This document shows, in pieces, positions 1 through 20,841 of a stretch of DNA of 64,000 nt. The translations under genes were made by a program, and so were the position numbers. The stretch covers positions 96,001 through 160,000 of IMG/VR virus record IMGVR_UViG_3300013426_000018. The stretch is one strand, 5' to 3'. Source of the stretch: a virus (Duplodnaviria > Caudoviricetes). The notes beneath the pieces are model-generated. The model was not told the origin of the DNA, did not search any database, and was given only the letters and a program-made list of their open reading frames with translations. Each line of letters starts with the position of its first letter. Within the stretch, counting starts at the first letter, position 1.

Positions 1-142
1 GCCGAACTAAGTTTAAGTCTTATTAGATTTAATAAATGCGTAGAGAGCATATACCGACCCCTAAGTCAGTAATGATATGGTGAAGACGTGCTCCGGACTA
101 CAACGATATTTGATATCGGCTATAGTGATATAGAGTAGTGTG
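1..142 (+). mobile_element. Group I intron (3' part, truncated by window start) inside a tRNA gene
   Basis: Core motifs GCCGAACTAAG...GTAGAGAGCATA...GAAGACGTGCTCCGG. Closely similar to the intron at 394-645. Ends in G142 directly before a tRNA 3' half. Confidence 0.8.
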
Positions 143-183
143 AAAACCTTAGGTTGTGGGATCGTACCCCACCTCCCCCGCCA
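143..183 (+). tRNA. tRNA 3' exon (Trp-like scaffold; anticodon N-N-A not fully visible)
   Basis: A-AA-ACCTT-AGGTT-GTGGG ATCGTAC CCCAC-CTCCCCC-G-CCA gives the anticodon 3' side, T arm, acceptor strand, G73 and CCA. The 5' exon lies outside the window. Confidence 0.75.
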
Positions 184-227
184 TTGGGTGTCTATTATGA
201 CACTTATGGCGTTCCGCAGGAACGCAA

Positions 228-333
228 TAGACGTTAACAGCAATTTTATAATATTAAAAAGAAAAGTTTTTCATATTTTTTATACACTCCTTTTCAACTG
301 TGCCTCTCGCAGGTAAATTCATTAAAGCGTCTA
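228..333 (+). ncRNA. ACAGCAA-motif stem RNA copy 1 (candidate Y-RNA-like)
   Basis: TAGACGTT(228-235) pairs with AGCGTCTA(326-333) and is followed by AACAGCAA. Same layout as copies 2 and 3. Confidence 0.55.
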
Positions 334-358
334 GTGATTTAAAATTGTAATTTAATAT

Positions 359-687
359 GGCCCATTATCCCAATCGGTAGAGGAAGAGGACTTTGATGTG
401 TTTCTTACTTTAAAGTAAGCTACTTTTTTAGTAGAGAGTGCCTAAGAGGAAACTCTTAGAGTAGAAGCTGGCTAAAACGGCGAAGGCAAACACAAAACGC
501 CGTGCTAAGTTTAAATCTTATTAGATTTAATAAATGTGTAGAGAGTATATACCAGCTACCTAAACCAGAAATGGCATGGTAAAGACGTATTCCGGACTAC
601 AACTTATTTTTATTAACAAGGCCATGGTAACATGGAGTAGTGTCGAAAATCCTTACAGTGTGGATTCGAATTCCACATGGGCTACCA
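359..687 (+). tRNA. tRNA-Leu(UAA), short variable arm, split by a group I intron (exons 359-393, 646-687)
   Basis: Acceptor GGCCCAT/ATGGGCT-A-CCA. Anticodon stem GAGGA/TCCTT with spliced loop CT-T|AA-AA. T arm GTGGA TTCGAAT TCCAC. Confidence 0.8.
394..645 (+). mobile_element. Group I intron in tRNA-Leu anticodon (after U34), no ORF
   Basis: U before and G at the end. Core motifs AAAACGGCGAA...GCCGTGCTAAG...GTAGAGAGTATA...AAGACGTATTCCGG. Confidence 0.8.
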
Positions 688-716
688 GGAATACCCCCTC
701 GATATGAGGGGATATT

Positions 717-810
717 CAAGACATATACAGCAACTCTTTAATGAATAACAAAAAATTCTGATAAAATTTTTTTAAGTGGGTTCAAATCCCGCAAACTTAA
801 ATGTGTCTTG
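717..810 (+). ncRNA. ACAGCAA-motif stem RNA copy 2 with tRNA-like anticodon and T arms
   Basis: CAAGACATAT(717-726) pairs with ATGTGTCTTG(801-810). ACAGCAA at 727-733. Internal hairpin AAAATT-CTGATAA-AATTTT and T arm GTGGG TTCAAAT CCCGC (776-792). Confidence 0.6.
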
Positions 811-839
811 TCTTAAATTTGTAGTTTTGTTACAAACAT

Positions 840-985
840 GCGAATGTAGCTCAGCGGCAGAGCATCGCCCTTTATCTGGTTCGATTAATGAAAGTCACTA
901 AACTTATTTTAGTTATGTTAGTTCAAGTCTAACACCAGATTCCATAAGGCGAGGGTCGAGGGATCAGCACCCTCCATTCGCACCA
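840..985 (+). tRNA. tRNA-Lys(UUU) interrupted in the anticodon by a 71-nt tRNA-like insert (exons 840-873, 945-985)
   Basis: GCGAATG/CATTCGC-A-CCA, D stem GCTC/GAGC, anticodon stem TCGCC/GGCGA. Removing 874-944 gives loop CT-TTT-AA. Confidence 0.75.
874..944 (+). ncRNA. Nested tRNA-like element with CCA end
   Basis: Acceptor ATCTGGT/ACCAGAT-T-CCA, D arm GATT/AGTC, stem CTAAA/TTTAG with non-canonical loop, T arm GTTAG TTCAAGT CTAAC. Confidence 0.75.
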
Positions 986-1006
986 GCTTCCTTTCATGGC
1001 AATCAA

Positions 1007-1086
1007 AAGACAGCTACAGCAAATTTTTTATGAAAAAGTTTTAATATAGAAGATATTTGGGGATTCCTTTCAATTTATACTGTCTT
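1007..1086 (+). ncRNA. ACAGCAA-motif stem RNA copy 3
   Basis: AAGACAG(1007-1013) pairs with CTGTCTT(1080-1086). CTACAGCAA follows the 5' strand. Confidence 0.5.
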
Positions 1087-1090
1087 GTTC

Positions 1091-1119
1091 TTGAAAAATA
1101 AAAAAATTTATGCTATAAT
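1091..1119 (+). promoter_or_regulatory. sigmaA-like promoter, extended -10
   Basis: TTGAAA-N17-TATAAT with TG extension. Member of a motif repeated across the window. Confidence 0.6.
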
Positions 1120-1507
1120 ATATATAGAAAAATTGAGAAATTATATTTCTCAAAAAGGTAAAGTAAATCTATATATATTATAGCATATTTTTTATTTTAG
1201 GAGTTGTTAAAAATGGTTTTTGGATTATTGTTTTTTCTCTGATTTTACCCTTTTTGTTTATTTTAAAACTATTTTTGATAAAATTAAATATAGAATCTTT
1301 AAGAAGATTACTTATTGGAAAGAGAAAAAGTATGAGCAGCAAAAAAAAAGCAATCCATTCTATCTGCTAAAACTGCTGAAATGATGCGAGTATGGTCTGA
1401 AGATATTGAATCTTATAAACTTGAAAGTATTAAAGAACTACAGTCTATAATTGATGAAAATAATAAAAAGATTAATGAGTATAAAAAACGTGTGGAGGAA
1501 TTAAAAA

Positions 1508-1750
1508 ATGAAACTTAAGAACTCTAAGGAGATTGCAGCTTTTGAAAAGGCAATTGCCTCTTGCTCTGGTGAAGTATGGCTTGAAACCCCAAATGGGGAT
1601 AAGCTAAACCTAAAATCCCTTTATTGTAAATATATTGCTATCGATAAGATGCTAGAAGATAAGGGAGATGATCTTGAACTCTTCTGTCAGTATAAAGAAG
1701 ATGAAAGACTGTTCTTTGATTTCTTTAGCAATTATCCAGACGCACTTTAA
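1508..1750 (+). CDS. Small protein, possibly HPr-like fold
   Basis: 80 aa with GGAGG RBS. Pattern F...I..C.GEVWL....GDKLNLKS resembles small HPr-fold Clostridia proteins. Confidence 0.45.
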   Translation: MKLKNSKEIAAFEKAIASCSGEVWLETPNGDKLNLKSLYCKYIAIDKMLEDKGDDLELFCQYKEDERLFFDFFSNYPDAL

Positions 1751-1805
1751 ATAAAAATATAAACCTACAGACTTGAAAAAGTCCAAGAGAAAAGGAGATA
1801 AAAAT

Positions 1806-3401
1806 ATGAACAATTTTATGAATGGTATGAAGCAGGCTACTAATTTTGGATATACCGCTAATGGCGGTCTTCAGCATAACCATCTTGCCGGTGCAGTATA
1901 TGAAATGTACGCTAAGTGCGGAGCTTATAGACAGCGTAGTGACGAAGATTGTATTTTTGCTTTCAAGCAGGCTTTTGATGAGGATGAGGAACTCGCCATG
2001 AAATGTCTGTTTTACCTTCGGGATGTATGTGAAGGGGCAGGGGAAAGACGCTTCTTTCGCGTATGCTATCATTGGTTGGCTACTAAGCATCCTGACGCAG
2101 CTCTCCGCAATCTAAAGTATATTCCTACCTATGGAAGATTCGATGATGTTTTTTCTGTCGTAGGCACTTCTCTAGAAGATAACGCTTTTGCCCTGATTAA
2201 GCATCAGTTGGCTATGGACGCAAAGGATGTTATGACTCCCAATGGGGCTATCTCTCTGTGCGCTAAGTGGGCTCCTAGTTGTAATACTAGCTCTCAGAAG
2301 ACTCGTGCGTTGGCTACTAAGCTGCGTAAGTATATGGGATTTAGCGAAAAACAGTATCGAAAGTTGCTAAGCACTTTGCGTAAGCGTATTAATGTTCTTG
2401 AGCGTCTTATGAGTGCTAATGAATGGGATAAGATCGATTTCTCAGCTATTCCTTCTCAGGCAGGTATTAAGTATCGCAAGGCATTTATCAGACACGATTT
2501 GGAACGTAAGAAGGCTGACCCCAAGGCAGTTACTTATGAAGAGTTCGTTAAGGACGATTCTACTAAAGTAAATGCTGGGGCAATGGCTCCTTACGAAGTT
2601 GTCCATAAGGCAGTTGATTATTTGCGTAAGAATTATACTTCTAAGTATGATTATAATACTAACACGCATACTTTTTATACTTCAAAGAGTATGGATGATA
2701 CTGAACGTCTTGCTATTAACAAGTATTGGGATAATTTGGCTGATTATTTCAAGGATGCTACTTTTAATGGCATTTGTGTTGTTGATACTTCTGGTTCTAT
2801 GACCTGTGGTCGTGGGGCTGCCACTCCTATTGATGTAGCTATCTCACTGGGTCTGTATTGTGCTGAACGCAATCATGGGCCTTTCGCTAATCACTATATC
2901 AGTTTTGCCTCTCGTCCTCAGATGATTGAGACTTCTGGCATTGATTTTGTTGATAAGGTTCTGCGTATTTACAAGACTAACCTTGTTGATAATACTAATC
3001 TTGAAGCTGTCTTTAATCTGATGCTACAAACTGCTATCGATAATAATTGTTCTCAGGACGAAATTCCTCAGACGGTTCTTGTTATTAGTGATATGCAAGT
3101 TGATTCAGCTGTAACTTTTGGTATGGGTTATGGCTGGGGTAGTTATGGTAATAAATCTGGTCAGATCCGCACTATGATGGAAAAGATGCGTGAACGATGG
3201 GCTGCTAGAGGATATCAGATGCCTAAAATCGTATATTGGAATGTTAATGCGAGCCAGGACACATTCCTTGACGATGGCCCTGATGTTACTTACGTTAGTG
3301 GAGCTTCCGCAACGGTCTTCAAGCAGGTTCTCACCGGGAAAAGTGGATATGATCTTATGATATCTACGCTGTCTAGTGACCGCTATAAGGATATCCATTA
3401 A
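1806..3401 (+). CDS. TROVE/Ro60-like protein with C-terminal vWA domain (DUF2828-type)
   Basis: RBS AAAGGAG before ATG 1806. Helical N-domain with LFYLRDV..GAGERRFF and AKWAPS. MIDAS motif VDTSGSM, VISDMQ, IVYWNV. No TAG codons. Confidence 0.8.
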   Translation: MNNFMNGMKQATNFGYTANGGLQHNHLAGAVYEMYAKCGAYRQRSDEDCIFAFKQAFDEDEELAMKCLFYLRDVCEGAGERRFFRVCYHWLATKHPDAALRNLKYIPTYGRFDDVFSVVGTSLEDNAFALIKHQLAMDAKDVMTPNGAISLCAKWAPSCNTSSQKTRALATKLRKYMGFSEKQYRKLLSTLRKRINVLERLMSANEWDKIDFSAIPSQAGIKYRKAFIRHDLERKKADPKAVTYEEFVKDDSTKVNAGAMAPYEVVHKAVDYLRKNYTSKYDYNTNTHTFYTSKSMDDTERLAINKYWDNLADYFKDATFNGICVVDTSGSMTCGRGAATPIDVAISLGLYCAERNHGPFANHYISFASRPQMIETSGIDFVDKVLRIYKTNLVDNTNLEAVFNLMLQTAIDNNCSQDEIPQTVLVISDMQVDSAVTFGMGYGWGSYGNKSGQIRTMMEKMRERWAARGYQMPKIVYWNVNASQDTFLDDGPDVTYVSGASATVFKQVLTGKSGYDLMISTLSSDRYKDIH

Positions 3402-3406
3402 TAACT

Positions 3407-3450
3407 TTTAGGAGAAGGCTTTTGCTTTCTCCTAAAATTTTTGGTATAAT
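3407..3450 (+). terminator. Intrinsic terminator overlapping the next sigmaA-like promoter
   Basis: TTTAGGAGAAGGC/GCTTTCTCCTAAA hairpin, then TTTTTGGTATAAT. Confidence 0.6.
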
Positions 3451-3761
3451 AACAAAAAGGGCAAGATAAATAAAATAGTGCCCTTTCTTTTTTATTTTTT
3501 ATAAAGAGAGAAAGGAGAATAATTGTATTCTATACTATTTTATTGCGGGAATGCTCTTTATTTATTTTGTAATTCCCCTCTCTGAAAATATTTTATCTTT
3601 TTTAGGGGCTTGGTTAAAATACCAAGAAACTAGATTTAGCACAGAAACTTATAAAATTAGCAAAAGAGCCTAGAAAGAAGTAGAAGAAAGCTCTTCTATT
3701 CACGCAATTGGCTTTACTTATACCGATGAAGAAGAAACTCCAGAAGAAGAGGATGAAGAAG

Positions 3762-5003
3762 ATGACTCATAAATTTTATGATACTTGTAGTTTGTTATTA
3801 AAAGCTGGGCACGTTTTTGATGAAGAAGATACTACTTTAGTAATTTCTTCTATTACTTTAGAAGAACTCGAGAATATTAAAACATCCAGTAGAAAAGATA
3901 ATAATGTTAAATTTGCGGCCCGCAAATTAACACATGAATTAGATGAACATTTTGGTGAATTTGAAACTATTATTTATGTTCCTTCTCTTTTGGAAGAACC
4001 TAATTTTGATTAGTATGAACCTACTAATGATTTAAAAATTATTGCTTGTGCCAATGTAGCAAATGAGCTATGGGAAGATTTAATTTTTATAACTAATGAT
4101 TTATGCTGTAAAAATTTAGCTTTAATGCTTCTAAAGTGCCCAATAGAGAAATATGTACTAGACGCGCCAGATTATACTGGTTATAAAGTAGTATCTTTAA
4201 CAGAAGAACAATTATTAGAATTTTATGAGAATACTACAAAAAATTTCTATAATTTATATATTGGTCAATATTTAATTCTAAAAGATTTGGATGGTAATAC
4301 TTTGGATGTCCGATGTTGGACCGGAGAAAATCATCGTTATATAAATACTAAACCAATAGATTCAAAATGGTTTGGTAAAATTTCCCCTTATAATGGAGAT
4401 ATTCTTTAGAAATTAGCTATTGATAGCCTTTATAATAATCAATTAACTGTTTTACGAGGCCCCGCAGGCACAGGAAAGTCAATGCTTGGATTATCTTTTT
4501 TATTCTCTCAGTTGGAACGTCATATAATTGATAGAATTTATATTTTTTGTAATCCAGTAGCAACTAAAGATGCGGCCAAACTTGGATTTTATCCAGGAGA
4601 TAAGAATATGAAACTATTAGATTCTCAAGTAGGTAACTTTTTAGTTGGTAAGCTTGGTGATTATACTGCGGTAGAAAGACTTGTTACCGATGGGTAGATT
4701 GTTTTAATTCCTGCAGCCGATTGCCGAGGAATGGATATAACTAATAATAGTGGAGTTTATATTACAGAAGCTTAGAACTCTACTATTGATATGATGAAAT
4801 TAATGGTTTAGCGTATTGGCGAAAATACTAAATGTGTAATTGAGGGCGATGATAAAACTTAGGTAGATTTAATTTCTTATGAAGGAACTAATAATGGTCT
4901 ATCAAGATTATCAGAAGTTTTTAAGGGACAACCTTATTATGGAGAAATAACTCTATCTAATTGTTATCGTTCTAAATTAGCTAAACAAGCTGAATTAATG
5001 TAA
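3762..5003 (+). CDS. phoH: PIN-domain PhoH-like ATPase (TAG=Gln readthrough)
   Basis: Track ORFs 3708, 4125 and 4482 are one frame joined by TAGs. PIN YDTCSL, Walker A GPAGTGKS, LGFYPG, ITEA*N (cf. DEAQN), GDDKT*VD. Ends TAA. Confidence 0.85.
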
Positions 5004-5056
5004 AAGGAGTAGTATTTTTACTACTCCTTTTTTAAAATATGTAAGGAGTACTTATA

Positions 5057-5840
5057 ATGGAAAAAGAATGGTGTGTTTATGTTCATATCTCTCCAAGTAA
5101 TAAATATTATGTTGGAATTACATGCTAGAAGCCAGAGCTTCGTTGGAGAAAAAATGGAACTGGATATTTTTATTAGGAAAATGAACATTTTGAAAGAGCA
5201 ATTACAAAATACGGATGGGATAATTTTTAGCATGAAATCATAGCAAGTCATTTAACTGAAGTTGAAGCTAAAAATTTTGAAAAACTATTGATAAAAAATT
5301 GAAATCAAATAATCCAAATTATGGATATAATAAAACTGCTGGGGAGATGGCTTCCTAGGAGTTCAACGTTTTGGTGAATCTAATTCTTTCTATGGAAAAC
5401 ACCATTCTGAAGCAACTAAAAAAATTATATCAGAAACTCTTGGAAAACTAGTGTGTCAATTTGATTTAAATTATAACTTTATTAAGAAATTTAATAGTAT
5501 AGCAGAAGCTTCTCGACAAACGAATATCCCAGCATCAGATATTTCATTTGTAATATCTGGGAGAAACAAAACCTCCCATGGATTCATTTGGATTACTCAA
5601 GAGGCAATTGATAATTTATCTTTAGAATAGATTATTGAAGAAAGAAAGAAAAAATTTCCTGAAAAAGTTAAAAAGCAAGTATATTAGTTTGATTTAAATA
5701 AAAATTTAATTAAAGTTTATGACAGTAGAGTTGATGCTGGAAAAGCTATAGGTGTTACTCCACAAGCAATAGGAAGTGCTTGCCAAAGCAAAAGTCATTA
5801 GTCCAAAGGATTTTTATGGTCATTTGAAAAGGAGATTTAA
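5057..5840 (+). pseudogene. Free-standing GIY-YIG/NUMOD homing endonuclease with two apparent 1-nt deletions
   Basis: WCVYVHISPSNKYYVGIT, FYGKHHSEAT (NUMOD3), V.QFDL repeats. Frame breaks in A-run ~5293 and G-run ~5341 (decay or sequencing error). Confidence 0.65.
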
Positions 5841-8510: not shown

Positions 8511-10596
8511 AGATTCTATTCAATCATTGAGTCCATTGGAATTTGTCAGGTTACGACCTTCTGTCTATTGCGGTAGTACAGAATATTCTACTCAATTATT
8601 GACTGAATTATTTGCCAATTCGACAGATGAATTTCAAATTGGAAATGCTCATACTATTATTATCAATTCCCTTCCTAATTACACCTATGAATTAAGTGAT
8701 GATGGACAAGGAATCTTACCTAATGTTTTACGAGAAGATGGAAAAACAATTTTTGAAGCAGTCCTAGGGCAGCTTAATACTAGTGGCAAATATAATGCCG
8801 ATGGAGTATACGAGGGGAGTTCTATTGGGGTCAATGGGATAGGGCTAAAGCTCGTCACTTTTTTAAGCCATTGGGTAGAAGGCCTTACATGGCGAGATGG
8901 AAAGTATGAGCGGGTTTGGTTCAAAGAAGGAGAGTTTGAAAAAAGAGAAACTGGTGAATGGACAGAAAAAAATAACCCTCATGGTACAAAAATTATTTGG
9001 CAGCCTAATGAAGAATTTTTTGTTCATCCAGAAGTTGAAGATAATAAAGTTAAAGAATTAATTCAATCAACTGTTTGCCTTTGTCAAGGTTTAACCGTTA
9101 AGTTTAATAATGAAACTTATTTTTCTTCTAATGGCATTGATGATTTAATTGATAGCAAAGATGAAATTCTAAAGAATCGTTTACGAATTAAATATCAAAA
9201 TGGTAAACACAAATTAGATTTAAGTTTAACTTATACTAGTTCGTATTCTTCTTCCATCATTTCATATGTAAATACTGGATTCACTACATCAGGTCCTCAT
9301 ATAACTCAAATAAAAACAATTCTTACTCGAGAAATGAATAAATTCTTTAGAGAAAAAAAATGGTTAAAAGATAAAGACGAGAATCTTTCTGGCGATGATT
9401 GTCAAGAGGGGTTGAGATTAGTTTTTCATTTAATCACAACTGATATTGGGTATGATGGACAGTTAAAAGATAGAATTGTCAAACTTGACATGACGCCTTT
9501 TACTGCTGTAATTTCAGAGGAATTACAAAATTGGCTAAATAACAATGAAAAAGCTGTCAAAGTAATTGCAGATAAAGCAATTAATGCTCGTAAGGCAAGA
9601 GAAGCTGCTAAAAAAGCTCGTGAAGCTGCTCGACAGCCAAAAGAAAAAGGCTTAAAGGCAAAATTAGCTTTAAGCACTAAGTTCACAGACTGTATTAGTA
9701 AGGATCCTAAAAAGAGAAACTTGCTGTTAGTTGAGGGAACTTCGGCCGCTAGCTCGGCGATAGAGGCTCGCAACACGCGCACAGATTGTATCTATCAGTT
9801 GCGAGGGAAGATCATTAGCCCGCTCAAAACGGATGTCTCAAAGATCCTACAGAATCAAGAAATGAGCGATATTATTCGAGTGATAGGTGCGGGATTTGGG
9901 AAAGATTTTGATGTCTCAAAGATGAATTTTAATAAGGTCGTGATCACAAGCGATCAAGACTCGGATGGCTTCGACATCGAGTTGCTCCTTTTGACATTCT
10001 TTTACACTTATATGCGTCCATTGGTGGAAGCTGGTAAGTTATATCGAGCAGTAACTCCTCTTTATATTATTCGCCAAAAGGATAAAGAATATTATTGTTA
10101 CAGTGATAGTGAATTAGAAGAATGGAAAAAATCTCATTCTGGTAAATATGATTTACTTAGAGCAAAAGGGTAAGAAAATGCGTCTGGCCCTTATCTTTTT
10201 AACCAGTTTATCGCTGGGGTTTGCTTAATAGCAAGCTAACGAGGTAGTCTTAAATAGATAATCTCGTGAGAACTTGTATAAAAATATGAGTTTTCGTATC
10301 GACTATCTCCTTTGTCGGAGAGTAAGATTGCTATTGATATGCAATTTGAAACATTAGATTGGTGAAAACCAAAAGAAATAGTCAGCTCTATTAGAAATAA
10401 TAGAATCAGTGTAGGCGAACTCAATGCAGAAGACCTTCAAAGAGTTTGTTTTATGAATGAACGATATAAACGAATTACTATTAGTGATATTGAAAAAACT
10501 ACTGAACTTTTAAATATTCTTCAAGGGCCTTCTGTTGAGCCTAGAAAGAAATATATTTATGAAAATGCTAAAGACCTTGGCTTTGAATTTGATTGA
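8482..10596 (+). CDS. gyrB: DNA gyrase subunit B, spliced (exons 8482-10171, 10412-10596)
   Basis: VRLRPSVYCG, E...NSTDE, DDGQGI, EGTSA, LRGK, DQDSDG. Splicing restores RAKG-L-GELN. Confidence 0.9.
10172..10411 (+). mobile_element. Group I intron in gyrB, no ORF
   Basis: U|...G boundaries. GCTAACGAG, ATCGACTA and GAAATAGTC core motifs. Splits KGLGE. Confidence 0.85.
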
Positions 10597-10607
10597 GAGG
10601 AGAAAGT

Positions 10608-13600
10608 ATGGAACAAAAGTCTTATATTACAGAAGTGGATGCACTAGATGAAGCAAAAGAATGTTTCTTAACTTATAGTGCGGAAGTTCTTACTGATAGA
10701 GCAATTCCAGCTGCTGAGGATGGTTTGCTTAGCTCTCAAAGAAAAATTCTTTGGACAATGAGCGATTTTCTTGGAATGGATTCAAAAGGTAAAACTAAAA
10801 AGTGTAATGCTCTTATAGGATCAACCCTCGCTACCTCATACTATCACGGAGATCAAGCATGTTATGGTGTTCTTTGTAAAATGTCTCAAAAGTATCTTAT
10901 GAGATATCCTCTTATCCATGGCCAAGGATCCCTTGGAACCCAAGAAGATAATGATCTCGTCGCTAGTTCGAGATATTGTATGACTGGAGATACTTTAATT
11001 CCTACTTCACAAGGTACAATTCAGTTACAAGATATTATTCCAAACTCTAACCTATCAGAAGAATATGATATTAATTTGGATGTCTTAGGATTTGATGGAC
11101 AAATTCATCATGCTTCTAAATTATTTAATAGCGGAAAATGGCCAGTGTTAAAAATTACTCTTGCTAATGGAATGTTTATTACAGTAACTGAAAATCATCC
11201 ATTAATGGTTTTAAATGATGATTTAAATTTAGTATGGAAATTGGCAGGACAATTAACGACAGAAGATAAAGTTTTATTATTAGTGCCGGATAATAGTCCA
11301 GTTACAGGTCATCATAATGATTACCTTGAAGCCGCAATGTTGGGAGCTATGATCTCTGAAGGCTATGCCACTACTCAAAATAAGATTGGTATTAATAATA
11401 AAGACCTAGAAATGATTGAACCAGTTGTTGAATATGTCCTTCGAGAATTACCTACTTGTAAAGCTTCGATCTGTGAAAATAAAAAAAGAGGTTATTACGA
11501 ATTTTGTTTTACTGATAAATATTTTTATCCTCAATTTATTAAAGAATTTGAATTTGAGAAGTCATTAACAAAACATTTACCATTACAATACTTTAAAGGA
11601 AATCCATCTTACAAAGCTACTCTTTTAAGTTATTTATTTGAAGGAGATGGCTCAGTTGATTCAGAACGTGGTATCACTTATTCTTCTATTAGCGAAACTT
11701 TAATTCATCAATTGCAAGTATCTTTATTACAAGATTTTGGTATTGTATCTAATATCGTTAGAGCAAAAAAAAGGAATGAAATAAAATTACATATTAATAA
11801 TGTTTATGCTGAAACGTTTAAAAATAAAATAAATTTTGTATCAGAGAGAAAACAAAAAACATTAAATGATCTAGTTATTAAAATAAATAATCAAAATACT
11901 ATTGCTAATGGAAATTTTTGTAATATTTATAAGGTTACACAATATATTCGTAATCATTATAAAGGAAAATATTTTAGAAGTCATGGATTTAGTAATAAGA
12001 AGTCTTATAAACAAGCTAAAGACTATATTTCACAACAAGATTACGAAAAGATTAGTAATTTAATTGAAAATTATGTTGAAATTAAAGTAGCAAGTATCGA
12101 GCCACAATCTAATGAAGAAATAGTATATTCTTTAAAAATTGATGATGAAAGTCATGCTTATATTGGAAATGGTTTTATTAATCATAACACTGAAGCGAAG
12201 CCTTCTATTTACACAGACTTAATGATGCTTGATTATAAAAAGAAACCGGTTCCAACAAAGGAGACTTATAATGGTGAATATATGGAACCAGTTGTACTAC
12301 CTTCTCTTTTTCCAAATGCCATTTGTAATGGAAGACAAGCTATTGGTATTTCTATGTCTCATAATTCTGTACCTAATAATTTACGGGAAACTTGTGATGC
12401 TATTATTGCTTATATTAAGAATCCTGAATTAACGATTGATGATATAATGCAATATATGAAAGGTCCTGATTTTCCTCTTGGCAATGTAATTATTAATCAA
12501 AAGGACATTAAGCAGGCATATGCTACTGGTAAATCTCAAACTTCTTTAAAGGTAAGAGGAGATTATGAAATTGATGGTGATAAAATTATTTTTACCACTA
12601 TTCCATATAGGACTTATCGTAATAAAATCAAAGAGCAACTTGAAAAAAATGTTGATGCTTTTGAAAAAGTTCTTGACGATTTTAATGATGAATCTAACAT
12701 TGGTAATAACAGATTAGTATTTTTTGCTAAACCTGGCCAAACCAAGATTCTGTTAAATAAACTATTTACTTTAACAGACTTACAAACTTCAATTTCTTTT
12801 AATATGAATTACATTGTCAATGGCACTCCTAAGCTTTGTTCTATTAAAGACTTAATTAAAGCTTATGTAATTCACCAAAATAATGTAATGATTAATATCG
12901 CAAAGACAGACCTTTCTAAGGCCGAAACTCGTAAACATACCCTTGAGGGTCTTCTTATCGCAATTAAAGATATCGATACAGCTATCCAGCTTATTAAAAA
13001 TTCTTTAGATAAAAATGAAGCTTGTAAAAAGTTAATGGAGCATTTTAATATTACAGAAGCTCAAGCTAGTGCTATTCTTGATATGAAATTAGCTAAATTA
13101 ACTAAACTTGACAAAGACGATTTACTTAAAGAGTTAGAAGAATTGCGGCAAGCTATTCTTAAGTACCAAAAGGTTATTGATGATCAATCTTATAGAGATT
13201 CTCAGCTTATTGAAAAAGTGACTTGGTTGCGTGATAAATATGGTGATGATCGCCGTACCAAAATCATGCAAATTGAAGACACTCCAAAAGAAGAGAAAGA
13301 AATTGCTAATGTAGAACCTGAAAAGTGTGTTGTTATTTCTACTGTTTCTGGGAACATCAAACGCATTCCCACTACTTCTTTTAAAACCCAAAAAAGAAAT
13401 GGTAAAGGAGTAAAAACACAAGATGATATTACCGACACAATCATTAAAACTAATACCATTGATTCTCTCTTAATCTTTAGTAATAAGGGTAATGTCTATC
13501 GCTTACTCGTAAATGATATTCCAGAAGGAACAAATGCGAGTAAAGGCCAACCAATTACTTCTTTAATCGAGATGCTCCCCGGCGAGAAGCCCACTATTAT

Positions 13601-14189
13601 TTATTCTGCTTATAGAGATACTGATGCTGAGTATATTTTCTTTGTAACTAAAAACGGTCTAGCCAAAAAAACCTCTATCAAAGAATATACTTCTATTAAG
13701 AAGAAAAATGGCACAACCGCAATTAAACTCAAAGATGGCGATGAAATTGCAGCAGTTGCCCTTATTAAAAATGAATCAATTATTCTTACTACTTCTGGTG
13801 GTAATTGTATCCATTTCGATAGTAAAGAAATTGCAGCTTCGGGTAGAGTTACTCAAGGTATGAAAGCAGTGACTTTAAAAGATGATGAAGAAGTTACTGG
13901 AATGGCAATTGTTCGTGAACCCACTGATAATCTTGCTGTATTTATGCCTAATGGAGTGGCAAGGCAAATTCCTTTAAAGGATTTTCCTTTACAAAAGCGT
14001 GCGGGAAAGGGCATTAAAATTGGGGAAGTAGCTGATATGACTCTTGTCGCACCAAGTGATACTTTACTAGTCTCTGGGCAAAAGAAGAACATTTGTATTG
14101 CCGCAAGTGATATTCCTGTTTTAGGCCGATTGGCACAAGGTAATCAAATTATTAAAGGTGACAGAGTTATTTCTGTGAGTAAAATTTAA
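10608..14189 (+). CDS. gyrA: DNA gyrase subunit A with intein
   Basis: DRAIP..EDGL, YYHGD, SRY|TE active site, GPDFP, GyrA-box-like QKRNGKG, beta-pinwheel repeats. Confidence 0.92.
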   Translation: MEQKSYITEVDALDEAKECFLTYSAEVLTDRAIPAAEDGLLSSQRKILWTMSDFLGMDSKGKTKKCNALIGSTLATSYYHGDQACYGVLCKMSQKYLMRYPLIHGQGSLGTQEDNDLVASSRYCMTGDTLIPTSQGTIQLQDIIPNSNLSEEYDINLDVLGFDGQIHHASKLFNSGKWPVLKITLANGMFITVTENHPLMVLNDDLNLVWKLAGQLTTEDKVLLLVPDNSPVTGHHNDYLEAAMLGAMISEGYATTQNKIGINNKDLEMIEPVVEYVLRELPTCKASICENKKRGYYEFCFTDKYFYPQFIKEFEFEKSLTKHLPLQYFKGNPSYKATLLSYLFEGDGSVDSERGITYSSISETLIHQLQVSLLQDFGIVSNIVRAKKRNEIKLHINNVYAETFKNKINFVSERKQKTLNDLVIKINNQNTIANGNFCNIYKVTQYIRNHYKGKYFRSHGFSNKKSYKQAKDYISQQDYEKISNLIENYVEIKVASIEPQSNEEIVYSLKIDDESHAYIGNGFINHNTEAKPSIYTDLMMLDYKKKPVPTKETYNGEYMEPVVLPSLFPNAICNGRQAIGISMSHNSVPNNLRETCDAIIAYIKNPELTIDDIMQYMKGPDFPLGNVIINQKDIKQAYATGKSQTSLKVRGDYEIDGDKIIFTTIPYRTYRNKIKEQLEKNVDAFEKVLDDFNDESNIGNNRLVFFAKPGQTKILLNKLFTLTDLQTSISFNMNYIVNGTPKLCSIKDLIKAYVIHQNNVMINIAKTDLSKAETRKHTLEGLLIAIKDIDTAIQLIKNSLDKNEACKKLMEHFNITEAQASAILDMKLAKLTKLDKDDLLKELEELRQAILKYQKVIDDQSYRDSQLIEKVTWLRDKYGDDRRTKIMQIEDTPKEEKEIANVEPEKCVVISTVSGNIKRIPTTSFKTQKRNGKGVKTQDDITDTIIKTNTIDSLLIFSNKGNVYRLLVNDIPEGTNASKGQPITSLIEMLPGEKPTIIYSAYRDTDAEYIFFVTKNGLAKKTSIKEYTSIKKKNGTTAIKLKDGDEIAAVALIKNESIILTTSGGNCIHFDSKEIAASGRVTQGMKAVTLKDDEEVTGMAIVREPTDNLAVFMPNGVARQIPLKDFPLQKRAGKGIKIGEVADMTLVAPSDTLLVSGQKKNICIAASDIPVLGRLAQGNQIIKGDRVISVSKI
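10977..12188 (+). mobile_element. LAGLIDADG intein (404 aa) directly after the GyrA catalytic Tyr
   Basis: Starts CMTGDT, block B TENHP, LGAMISEG and LFEGDG, ends GFINHN followed by T. Confidence 0.92.
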
Positions 14190-16865: not shown

Positions 16866-17849
16866 ATGATTACATATATTCTTTTATCTTTGCCTATTAT
16901 TATTTTAATTGTTCTTACTTTTATTTAGTCAAAAGCAATAGTTAAATATAAAAAAATGGCTTCTGAAGAAGAACGAGAAATTCATCAACGTATTCAAGAA
17001 TAGTATAAAGATGAAATTGAATCTTACTAGTAGAGAATTAAAAATTTAAAAATCCAATAGAAGCAAGAAGTTGATTCATTAGATAATATTAATTAGCATA
17101 TAGAAGAATCAAGGGCAACCGCAAATCGAAATGCTGAACAATATTACAATTAGTGTCTAGCTACAGTAGAAGAATAGATTAAATTAAAGCATGAGCAATT
17201 ACTTCAAAATTATCAGAAAGTAAAAGAAATTCTTGATAAAGAATATGAGTAGAATAAAGTTCTAAAACAACAAGAATTAGAATAGTTTGTTCAGCAGTGT
17301 GATAATCAAATAAATATCGCTCAAGCTTCATTAGATGAAGTCCAAAAAAAAGTAGACAGTACTACTGAAGTCGCTAGAAGGGCAGAAGCTGAATAGAATC
17401 AAAAAGATTTTTATCGGATTCAATTAAGTGCGGAAGATATTGAAGAAATTCAAAAAATTCGTTCTATTGAACCTTTTTTGCGTAATAAAGAGCCTTTAAA
17501 TAAAATAATTTGGAAATATTATTATGAGAAGCCTGTTAATGAAATGATTGGCCGAGTTATTGGTCCAGGCATTCGTATTGGAATATATAAAATTACAAAT
17601 ATAGAAAATGGTAAATGCTATATAGGGCAAAGTACAAATCTATCAGACAGATGGAAGCAACATGTAAAAAAAGGCATCGGGGCAGATGGTTTAACAAGAA
17701 ACAAGCTCTATCCAGCTATGCTAGCTATTGGCCCTGAAAATTTTACATTTGAAATTATCGAAGAATGTAAAAAAGAACAACTAGACGAACGAGAAGACTA
17801 TTATCAACAATTTTTTCATGCCATTGATTATGGCTATAGTATAAAGTAA
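16866..17849 (+). CDS. Membrane-anchored coiled-coil protein with C-terminal GIY-YIG domain
   Basis: N-terminal hydrophobic helix, E/Q/K-rich middle with many TAGs, in frame with GIYKITN...CYIGQS. Confidence 0.7.
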
Positions 17850-19896: not shown

Positions 19897-19959
19897 AGAT
19901 TTTGGACAAAATTAGACATTTTCATCAAATGAAAGTTAATAAACATTGAGGTGATAAAA

Positions 19960-20841
19960 GTGTCTTGTGGTATTTATAAATTTGAAAATTTAATTAATCA
20001 TAAAATATATATAGGTTAGTCTGTTGAATTGGAAGAGCAGTATTATAGACATAGATACCATTATGAAAAGAAAGATATTGATAAACGTCTTTATCAAGCT
20101 TTTTGGAAATATGGGTGGGATAAATTTTCTTATGAAATAATTGAATATTGTTCTCCTGAAGAATTGGATGAAAAAGAAATTTATTACATTTAGCTCTATG
20201 ACAGTTATAATAATGGATATAATGCTACTAAGGGAGGTAAAGGCGGGGCTAATCACCCGTCTAAATCCGTACAGTAGTTTGATTTAGATGGAAACTTTAT
20301 AAAAGAATTCTCATCAATGTCCTTAGCTGCGGAAGAAGTTGGAATTAGTCCTAATATTTTAACAAAGTGTTGCCAAGGAAAAACAGACCATTGTGGATTA
20401 TATCAATGGAAATATAGCAATGATGATAGTCGTATCATAAAGTAGCTTTCTAATAAAGAAGTTTCTTTATATGAAAGAAAAATTCTATAGTATGATTTAA
20501 AAAAGAATTTATTAAATACTTATAATTCAATGGATGAAGCGGCTGAATAGACAAATGTTGCGAAATCCAGTATATGTAATGTTTGCAAAGGAAGAAAAAA
20601 TACTGCTGGGGGATATGTGTGGCGTTATTTTGATGACCCACTAACTGAGTAGGACCGTGTTAAAACAAAAGAAAAAAAGGTTTTACAATTTGACAAATTA
20701 GGGAACCTGATACAAGAGTTTCCTAGCTTATCTAATGCTTCAAAAGAAACTGGAGTATGCCTAGCTGCAATAGGACTTAATTGTCAGCAAAAAAGAAAAT
20801 CAGCTGGTGGATATGTATGGAAATATAGAGATAATATTTAA
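19960..20841 (+). CDS. Free-standing GIY-YIG homing endonuclease with NUMOD1 repeats
   Basis: GIYKFENLINHKIYIG*S, GYN.T.GG, three V.QFD..G...AGGY.W.Y repeats. TAG readthrough. Confidence 0.8.

Follow-up and report, generated by a model that had tools for sequence, protein, structure and literature searches.

The only lysine tRNA gene of phage G000 (by genome-wide tRNA calls), a tRNA-Lys(UUU), is interrupted in its anticodon loop by a 71-nt insert which itself has the shape of a tRNA, and exact deletion of this insert restores an ordinary anticodon loop. The same design occurs in seven tRNA genes of related phages, always with borders that coincide with the ends of the inner tRNA-like unit. 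The insert may be an intron removed by the nucleases that process tRNA ends, with a phage RNA ligase joining the exons. The IMG/VR record of G000 comprises 173,969 bp (174 kb) and is complete according to CheckV. Bases 96001-160000 of this record, a stretch of 64 kb, are referred to as the window, and coordinates are those of the window unless assigned to the genome.

The interrupted tRNA-Lys(UUU) gene and its insert

In intron mode, ARAGORN predicted a tRNA-Lys(ttt) at positions 840-985 with a 71-nt intron at 874-944, and the outer gene scored 45.5 bits with Infernal (RF00005) despite the insert. Both programs confirm the preliminary description of this locus, in which the insert had been placed at the same positions within tRNA-Lys(UUU) and its removal had been seen to restore CT-TTT-AA. 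The nested gene is composed as follows:

840-873, plus strand: 5' exon with acceptor strand (840-846), D arm (849-863), anticodon stem (865-869) and loop positions 32-35, CTTT (870-873)
874-944, plus strand: tRNA-shaped intron, 71 nt, with acceptor helix 874-880/934-940 (7 bp) and D arm 883-886/893-896
897-902/908-913, plus strand: anticodon arm of the intron, stunted, with a 6-bp stem and a 5-nt loop (903-907)
917-921/929-933, plus strand: T arm of the intron with a 5-bp stem and loop TTCAAGT (922-928)
941-944, plus strand: 3' end of the intron with discriminator T941 and CCA (942-944)
945-985, plus strand: 3' exon; its first part holds loop positions 36-38, TAA (945-947), anticodon stem (948-952) and variable loop (953-957), its second part the T arm (958-974, loop ATCAGCA 963-969), acceptor strand (975-981), A982 and CCA (983-985)

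The anticodon loop is thus interrupted between positions 35 and 36. In-silico deletion of 874-944 yielded a 75-nt tRNA-Lys with the loop CTTTTAA in the standard mode of ARAGORN, and this loop was obtained at no other offset. The 23-nt spliced junction matched exactly to at least 120 uninterrupted tRNA-Lys genes on metagenome contigs, hence the exons represent an ordinary lysine anticodon arm cut in two. The intact tRNAs of relatives nearest to the outer gene were likewise tRNA-Lys(ttt). The outer T loop, ATCAGCA, is without the usual T54 and A58, which weighs against a functional tRNA; odd T loops are also present in other tRNAs of G000. Contigs from two other public runs cover window positions 1-5468 with zero differences within 840-985, so the nested gene is not an assembly artefact. 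The contigs from a further run (X5, guessed to be RNA) cover positions 1654-3005 only, in the DUF2828 gene described below, and none of the tRNAs. The joint 873/945 was not seen in the public-run data, all of which consist of assembled contigs. Positions 700-1100 had no match among cultured phages (blastn), and an exact 28-mer from the 5' exon had none in IMG/VR.

The insert matches the Rfam tRNA family at 41 bits (gathering score 29; E = 2.9e-5 for the 64-kb window, 2e-7 locally) and is the only match to any Rfam family above gathering score in the window. Run alone, the 71-nt unit gave no tRNA match on the plus strand, which was taken as a filter or edge effect. In its minimum free energy structure (-43.3 kcal/mol, z = -3.5, none of 200 shuffled sequences as low), the 146-nt precursor forms one cloverleaf within another, and the insert alone also folds into a cloverleaf. 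Its acceptor helix, T arm, discriminator and CCA are all canonical, and the 7-bp acceptor helix directly abuts the 5-bp T stem. Over 18 nt the T arm is identical to genuine tRNA genes of other phages; apart from one stretch that is not a tRNA, this 18-mer matched only ordinary tRNA genes of phages. In global alignments of the inner units with 327 tRNAs, similarity was at the level of shuffled sequences. The anticodon loop of the insert comprises 5 nt in both the Infernal alignment and the energy fold, where a canonical decoding tRNA has 7 nt and U33. The cloverleaf proposed in the preliminary description therefore stands with respect to the acceptor, D arm, T loop and CCA, although the element is not a normal tRNA. 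A reading as ochre suppressor (ARAGORN call tRNA-Stop(tta)) was rejected, since it needs C33, the alternative being the 5-nt loop. As modelled, the insert is a tRNA mimic and not a decoder. It has the anatomy of an acceptor-T minihelix (7-bp acceptor helix, 5-bp T stem stacked under it, 7-nt loop, tail of N73 or N73-CCA), which is the minimal substrate of RNase P, RNase Z and the CCA enzyme, and its cleavage is a prediction.

Group I introns possess a conserved catalytic core and a terminal G and are typically 200 nt or longer. No Intron_gpI match was obtained within positions 700-1150 at E values up to 10, and the insert has 71 nt and ends in A instead of G. As it contains no group I core, it is not capable of self-splicing by that chemistry. 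The earlier statement that a group I or group II core is missing is in line with these data and with the lack of any Rfam intron match to the insert. The bulge-helix-bulge motif has, at the splice sites, a 4-bp helix between two 3-nt bulges. It was not found in the fold, in which single strands of 4 and 7 nt flank a 7-bp helix.

Genome context and the tRNA cluster

The GC content of the window is 33%. Coverage by open reading frames of at least 100 codons rose from 0.52 to 0.87 once TAG was read as sense, and hence G000 is a TAG-recoded phage; a Sup(CUA) tRNA is present in its tRNA cluster. The cluster spans 91 kb to 97 kb of the genome, with the nested tRNA-Lys as its last member. ARAGORN in default mode called zero tRNAs in the whole 64-kb window because every tRNA there is interrupted. 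AAA is the second commonest codon of G000 (59 per 1000). We judge the host to be bacterial from an encoded peptidoglycan hydrolase.

Two further interrupted tRNAs are located just upstream of the nested gene, at 1-183 (gene start at genome position 95888) and 358-690. Their introns of 220-260 nt each match Intron_gpI below the gathering score, one at 34.1 bits (E = 7.6e-7) and the other at 18.6 bits (E = 0.033). If spliced after U and after a terminal G, the predicted anticodon loops are CTCTAAA, that of an amber suppressor (CUA), and CTTAAAA. A wastewater contig (run X6) connects position 383 to 646, as though it derived from a relative without the second of these introns. Before the window, at genome positions 95284-95361, a free-standing AT-rich tRNA-like gene with a CCA end scored 39.3 bits on the tRNA model; its anticodon loop appears oversized and its T arm is similar to those of the inner units of the related phage G016. 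This gene may represent a copy of such a mimic in unintegrated form. A weak tRNA-like fragment (737-794, 18.2 bits, E = 0.4) has a good T arm and, in CTGATAA, a loop of the Ile type, but a matching 5' acceptor strand is missing.

Mobile elements are unusually abundant in this genome. The gyrase A gene (10593-14186) is split by an intein with a LAGLIDADG endonuclease, and free-standing GIY-YIG endonucleases are encoded at 16866-17846 and 19951-20838. The gene for a DUF2828/DUF7788 vWA protein (1773-3398) lies 0.8 kb downstream of the nested tRNA-Lys, followed by a gene of the PIN-PhoH2 RNA helicase/nuclease type (3708-5000), 2.7 kb downstream of the nested tRNA. The Rfam family YrlA, a bacterial Y RNA-like family, gave a sub-threshold match at genome positions 95759-95857 (positions 420-518 of locus L006; 32.7 bits, gathering score 69, E = 1.6e-4). 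This match precedes the DUF2828 gene by 2 kb.

Nested tRNA genes in related phages

Relatives were collected by means of the DUF2828/DUF7788 vWA protein, which gave 19 phage contigs, most with a tRNA cluster upstream of that gene. Intact tRNA-Lys(ttt) was present in many of them, and several of their tRNAs carried short anticodon-loop inserts, so that the same tRNAs are intact in some of these phages and interrupted in others. Together with the tRNA-Lys of G000, seven genes of relatives make up eight cases, affiliated to Lys(UUU) (two), Asn(GUU), Sup(CUA) and Leu(UAA) (four). The genes of the relatives are:

Lys(UUU), phage G016: CTTT, a 67-nt unit ending in ACCA, then TAA; interrupted at 35/36, the same site as in G000
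Asn(GUU), phage G016: inner unit ending at the discriminator
Sup(CUA), amber suppressor, phage G017: inner unit ending at the discriminator
Leu(UAA), four phages: 49-nt unit ending in ACCA; interrupted at position 32/33

A search for the same nesting in related phages had been proposed, and such nesting was found in kind, in one case at the same 35/36 site of a tRNA-Lys(UUU). In each of the eight genes the insert begins at position +1 of the acceptor helix and ends at N73 or N73-CCA, and deletion of exactly this unit resulted in a tRNA accepted by ARAGORN in standard mode. All eight inner units have an acceptor helix with 5-7 of 7 possible pairs, an abutting stem with 5 of 5 pairs and a 7-nt loop. 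As MAFFT alignments of the inner units were out of structural register, pairs were counted by position instead. For each interrupted gene, the intact tRNAs nearest in sequence to the outer body had the same identity. On the Rfam tRNA model the two inner units of G016, in which the anticodon arm is truncated or missing, reached 44.5 and 41.9 bits. According to these models, the introns of this class share a T arm on which an acceptor helix is stacked and have no usable anticodon loop; a D arm is optional. ARAGORN had called the interrupted genes of G016 and G017 as Gln(ttg), Lys(ctt) and Stop(tta); these calls were overturned by the identity of the bodies and the border rule in favour of Lys(UUU), Asn(GUU) and Sup(CUA). 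A search with an exact 15-mer of the Leu-type intron returned mostly chance matches and four real ones.

The sites of insertion vary between genes (32/33, 34/35 and 35/36), and the inner sequence of the tRNA-Lys of G016 has diverged from that of G000 despite the shared site. In the Leu(UAA) family of four phages, covariation was seen in base pairs formed between the two exons, in the acceptor as well as in the anticodon stem, whereas the loop is constant (CTTAAAA), which argues for selection on the outer tRNAs as tRNAs. The inner acceptor helix covaries in this family as well.

Spacers behind tRNAs repeatedly contain a hairpin with ACAGC(A/T)A after it, in G000 at 728-735 and 1012-1022. The same combination constitutes a second kind of insert, of 31-49 nt, in or beside anticodon loops of tRNAs of the relatives (L033 7830-7963, minus strand; L030 17682-17805; L032 14209-14331; L034 12765-12883). 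In the Leu and Sup inner units, the T-like arm is closed by a related heptamer, GGCAGCA, as its loop; the outer tRNA-Lys has ATCAGCA in its T loop. The ACAGC(A/T)A-type element may be a shared signal for protein binding or processing.

Proposed excision of the insert and comparison with known systems

RNase P measures the 5' end of a tRNA, and nucleases of the RNase Z type cut at N73 or, in some species, after CCA. Their products, a 3'-OH on the upstream piece and a 5'-phosphate on the downstream piece, are substrates of ATP-dependent RNA ligases. Since both borders keep to the inner unit although the insertion site moves from gene to gene, the cutters appear to measure from the inner tRNA shape and not from the outer tRNA. 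To judge from the sequences, the fixed borders point to RNase P and an RNase Z-type enzyme.

For the joining of the halves, the preliminary description had named RtcB, Rnl and Pnk enzymes as candidates. Searches of the G000 genome retrieved an Rnl5-type ligase together with a P-loop kinase and a metallophosphoesterase:

genome 80215-81528: Rnl5-type ATP-dependent RNA ligase (PHA02142 OB domain PF21189; TIGR02306 below cut-off)
genome 85347-85904: AAA_33 P-loop kinase
genome 77218-77796: metallophosphoesterase, calcineurin-type

The ligase consists of an N-terminal OB domain and a nucleotidyltransferase domain with the KxDG lysine motif, as in Rnl5 enzymes. It aligned over both domains with the structure of Rnl5 from Naegleria (PDB: 5cot, E = 6e-21), its KCDGSS opposite KLDGSS. 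Genes for the kinase, the phosphoesterase and a DEDD exonuclease are located within about 8 kb of it; the second ligase of G000 is an NAD-dependent DNA ligase. RtcB, Rnl1, EndA (PF01974), an RNase Z-like protein and a CCA-adding enzyme were not found in the genome. The ligase was present in all five insert-bearing relatives in which it could be assessed and absent from four complete relatives, whose fetched tRNA-cluster regions showed no insert. At least seven ligase-bearing genomes are without inserts, however, and 313 matches to the ligase family were obtained in cultured phages. Loci centred on the ligase held few tRNAs and no inserts, and five ligase-bearing genomes had no over-long tRNA matches. 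The co-occurrence of ligase and insert is weak and confounded by kinship. With the family this common in insert-free phages, the ligase is permissive rather than diagnostic, and we claim no specific link between ligase and intron.

Considering borders, folds and gene content together, we propose that the tRNA-mimic intron is removed by the nucleases of tRNA end processing and the gap sealed by the phage ligase, an explanation which we credit with somewhat less than an even chance of being correct. The transcript of the cluster would fold into a tRNA within a tRNA. Host RNase P would cut at 873/874, where the inner acceptor helix begins, and leave a 3'-OH on the 5' exon; an RNase Z-type 3'-end nuclease would cut at 944/945 behind the inner CCA, or behind the discriminator in those relatives without an inner CCA, and leave a 5'-phosphate on the 3' exon. 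The exons would be held together by the pairing of the outer acceptor and anticodon stems until the Rnl5-family ATP-dependent ligase closes the anticodon-loop nick, and the phage kinase and phosphoesterase could repair ends of other chemistry. The scheme extends an earlier suggestion of RNase P plus a cut after CCA as splicing route, with which the borders agree in all eight cases, although no RNase Z-like gene was found in G000. Several points count against it. Many bacterial RNase Z enzymes are inhibited by CCA, which speaks against a cut after the encoded CCA; the characterised Rnl5 enzymes seal nicks in duplex RNA and not in loops; and the 5' hairpin which precedes the tRNA module in the introns of Lak megaphages could not be removed by RNase P alone.

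Given that Lak-type introns require more than RNase P, a dedicated, unrecognised endonuclease of phage or host might instead read the tRNA shape. The insert would again be a real intron, and its excision would leave a 2',3'-cyclic phosphate and a 5'-OH, ends which the phage kinase and phosphoesterase would heal and which either the phage ligase or host RtcB would then seal. Such a pathway would account for the full heal-and-seal set of G000, needless if the ends already are 3'-OH and 5'-phosphate, but these sets are common in phages as repair systems against anticodon nucleases. About half of the open reading frames scanned near the cluster affiliate with no family and the PIN-PhoH2 gene is close by; nonetheless, no candidate nuclease was found among the G000 genes scanned, and both an EndA-type domain and a bulge-helix-bulge in the fold are missing. 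As the exact borders at +1 and N73 or CCA are most simply explained by RNase P and a tRNA 3' nuclease, we regard a dedicated endonuclease as unlikely. The remaining explanations do without splicing. RNase P and 3' trimming might release the inner mimic, the tRNA-Lys halves or both as functional products from an outer tRNA serving as scaffold, and these products could be decoys for tRNA-targeting defences or partners of the neighbouring DUF2828 protein. A scaffold, however, would have no need of U33, an anticodon or A37, and in all eight cases the seven loop bases are canonical and the anticodon is right for the body, though split across the exons. That the exon-exon covariation takes in the anticodon stem, and that the nested gene provides the sole Lys tRNA of an AAA-rich genome, likewise make functional fragments quite improbable, notwithstanding inner units which are conserved in shape and CCA-ended like stable tRNAs, a DUF2828/vWA gene which adjoins the tRNA cluster in most of the 19 relatives, and a sub-threshold YrlA-like match 1 kb upstream.

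The coexistence of intact and interrupted alleles is what would be expected of a mobile insert, and the non-canonical outer T loop would fit a tRNA-Lys gene that was inactivated by a selfish tRNA-like element and has been retained because the event is recent. Odd T loops are not confined to this gene, though, and the outer cloverleaf is intact at 45.5 bits. The same design at the same site of the tRNA-Lys of another phage, with a diverged inner sequence, and the compensatory changes in the exons and inner helix of the Leu family from four phages render a dead gene very improbable.

Bacterial and phage tRNA introns are thought to be self-splicing. Removal by end-processing enzymes would establish a third route of tRNA splicing, in which the intron is a mimic, the universal enzymes of tRNA end maturation act as splicing nucleases and a phage ligase joins the exons; we put this forward tentatively and consider it possible rather than probable. 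If the route exists, the maturation of phage Lys, Leu, Asn and amber-suppressor tRNAs depends on a phage enzyme and the inner mimic is freed as a by-product. A new splicing pathway would explain the interrupted suppressor and high-demand tRNAs of recoded phages and would change annotation, as such genes are missed by standard tRNA finders. If the model is false, the inserts are selfish or decoy elements, still relevant to phage-host conflicts over tRNA. The locus offers a minimal test substrate of 146 nt, with an intron that is exactly a +1-to-CCA mimic and a phage that supplies a candidate ligase, and the model of RNase P, RNase Z and ligase is thereby testable in vitro with standard enzymes.

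Similar to group I introns, which are carried by two neighbouring tRNAs of the cluster, the insert is located in the anticodon loop; it differs in its length, its missing P3-P9 core, its terminal A and the lack of an Intron_gpI match. With the introns of archaeal and eukaryal tRNAs, which are processed by EndA/Sen and by RtcB or Trl1, it shares the short length, the position in the anticodon loop and, in the proposal made here, protein-dependent removal and exon ligation. In contrast to these systems, G000 has no bulge-helix-bulge, EndA or RtcB, the host is bacterial, and the element recognised would be the tRNA shape of the intron itself. The mascRNA of MALAT1, plant mitochondrial t-elements and mitochondrial tRNA punctuation are precedents for a tRNA mimic which recruits RNase P and RNase Z to both of its ends. 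In those cases the flanks are not rejoined, whereas in G000 the flanks are the two halves of a tRNA.

In phage T4, PrrC breaks the anticodon loop of tRNA-Lys(UUU), and Pnkp and Rnl1 reseal it. Both cases concern the same tRNA species and phage-encoded healing and sealing of an anticodon-loop break. In T4, however, a host defence nuclease breaks a mature host tRNA, whereas the break in G000 would be programmed in the phage's own gene and the ligase is of the Rnl5 type and not Rnl1. The idea that the insert might shield this anticodon against PrrC-type nucleases is purely speculative.

The closest resemblance is found among large phages. 'Enigmatic' introns, one of them predicted to encode a tRNA, were described in tRNAs of Lak megaphages (Devoto et al. 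2019; PMC6784885, Fig. 4, Table S6), and tRNA introns which 'could encode another tRNA' were noted for 262 alternatively coded jumbo phages (PMC13037316, 2026). Neither publication offers a mechanism for tRNA-shaped phage introns, nor was later work found that gives one, in accordance with the mention of embedded tRNAs in Lak introns, without a mechanism, in the preliminary description. By our own reading of Table S6 (PMC6784885), all four Lak intron types contain a module of acceptor plus T arm. G000 resembles these phages in reading TAG as sense and in having a short, protein-less anticodon-loop insert with such a module, and a 7-nt loop results on removal of its tRNA-like insert. The four Lak introns differ from the G000 insert by an extra 5' hairpin and an A-rich linker before the module and are placed at or near position 37/38, whereas G000, with 174 kb, is not a jumbo phage and its intron consists of the mimic only, from +1 to CCA. 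Introns of tRNA shape in phage tRNAs are thus already published as an observation, without a mechanism, and the G000 locus is a further example, notable for its minimal form, its occurrence in a sub-jumbo phage and its same-site counterpart in the tRNA-Lys of another phage.
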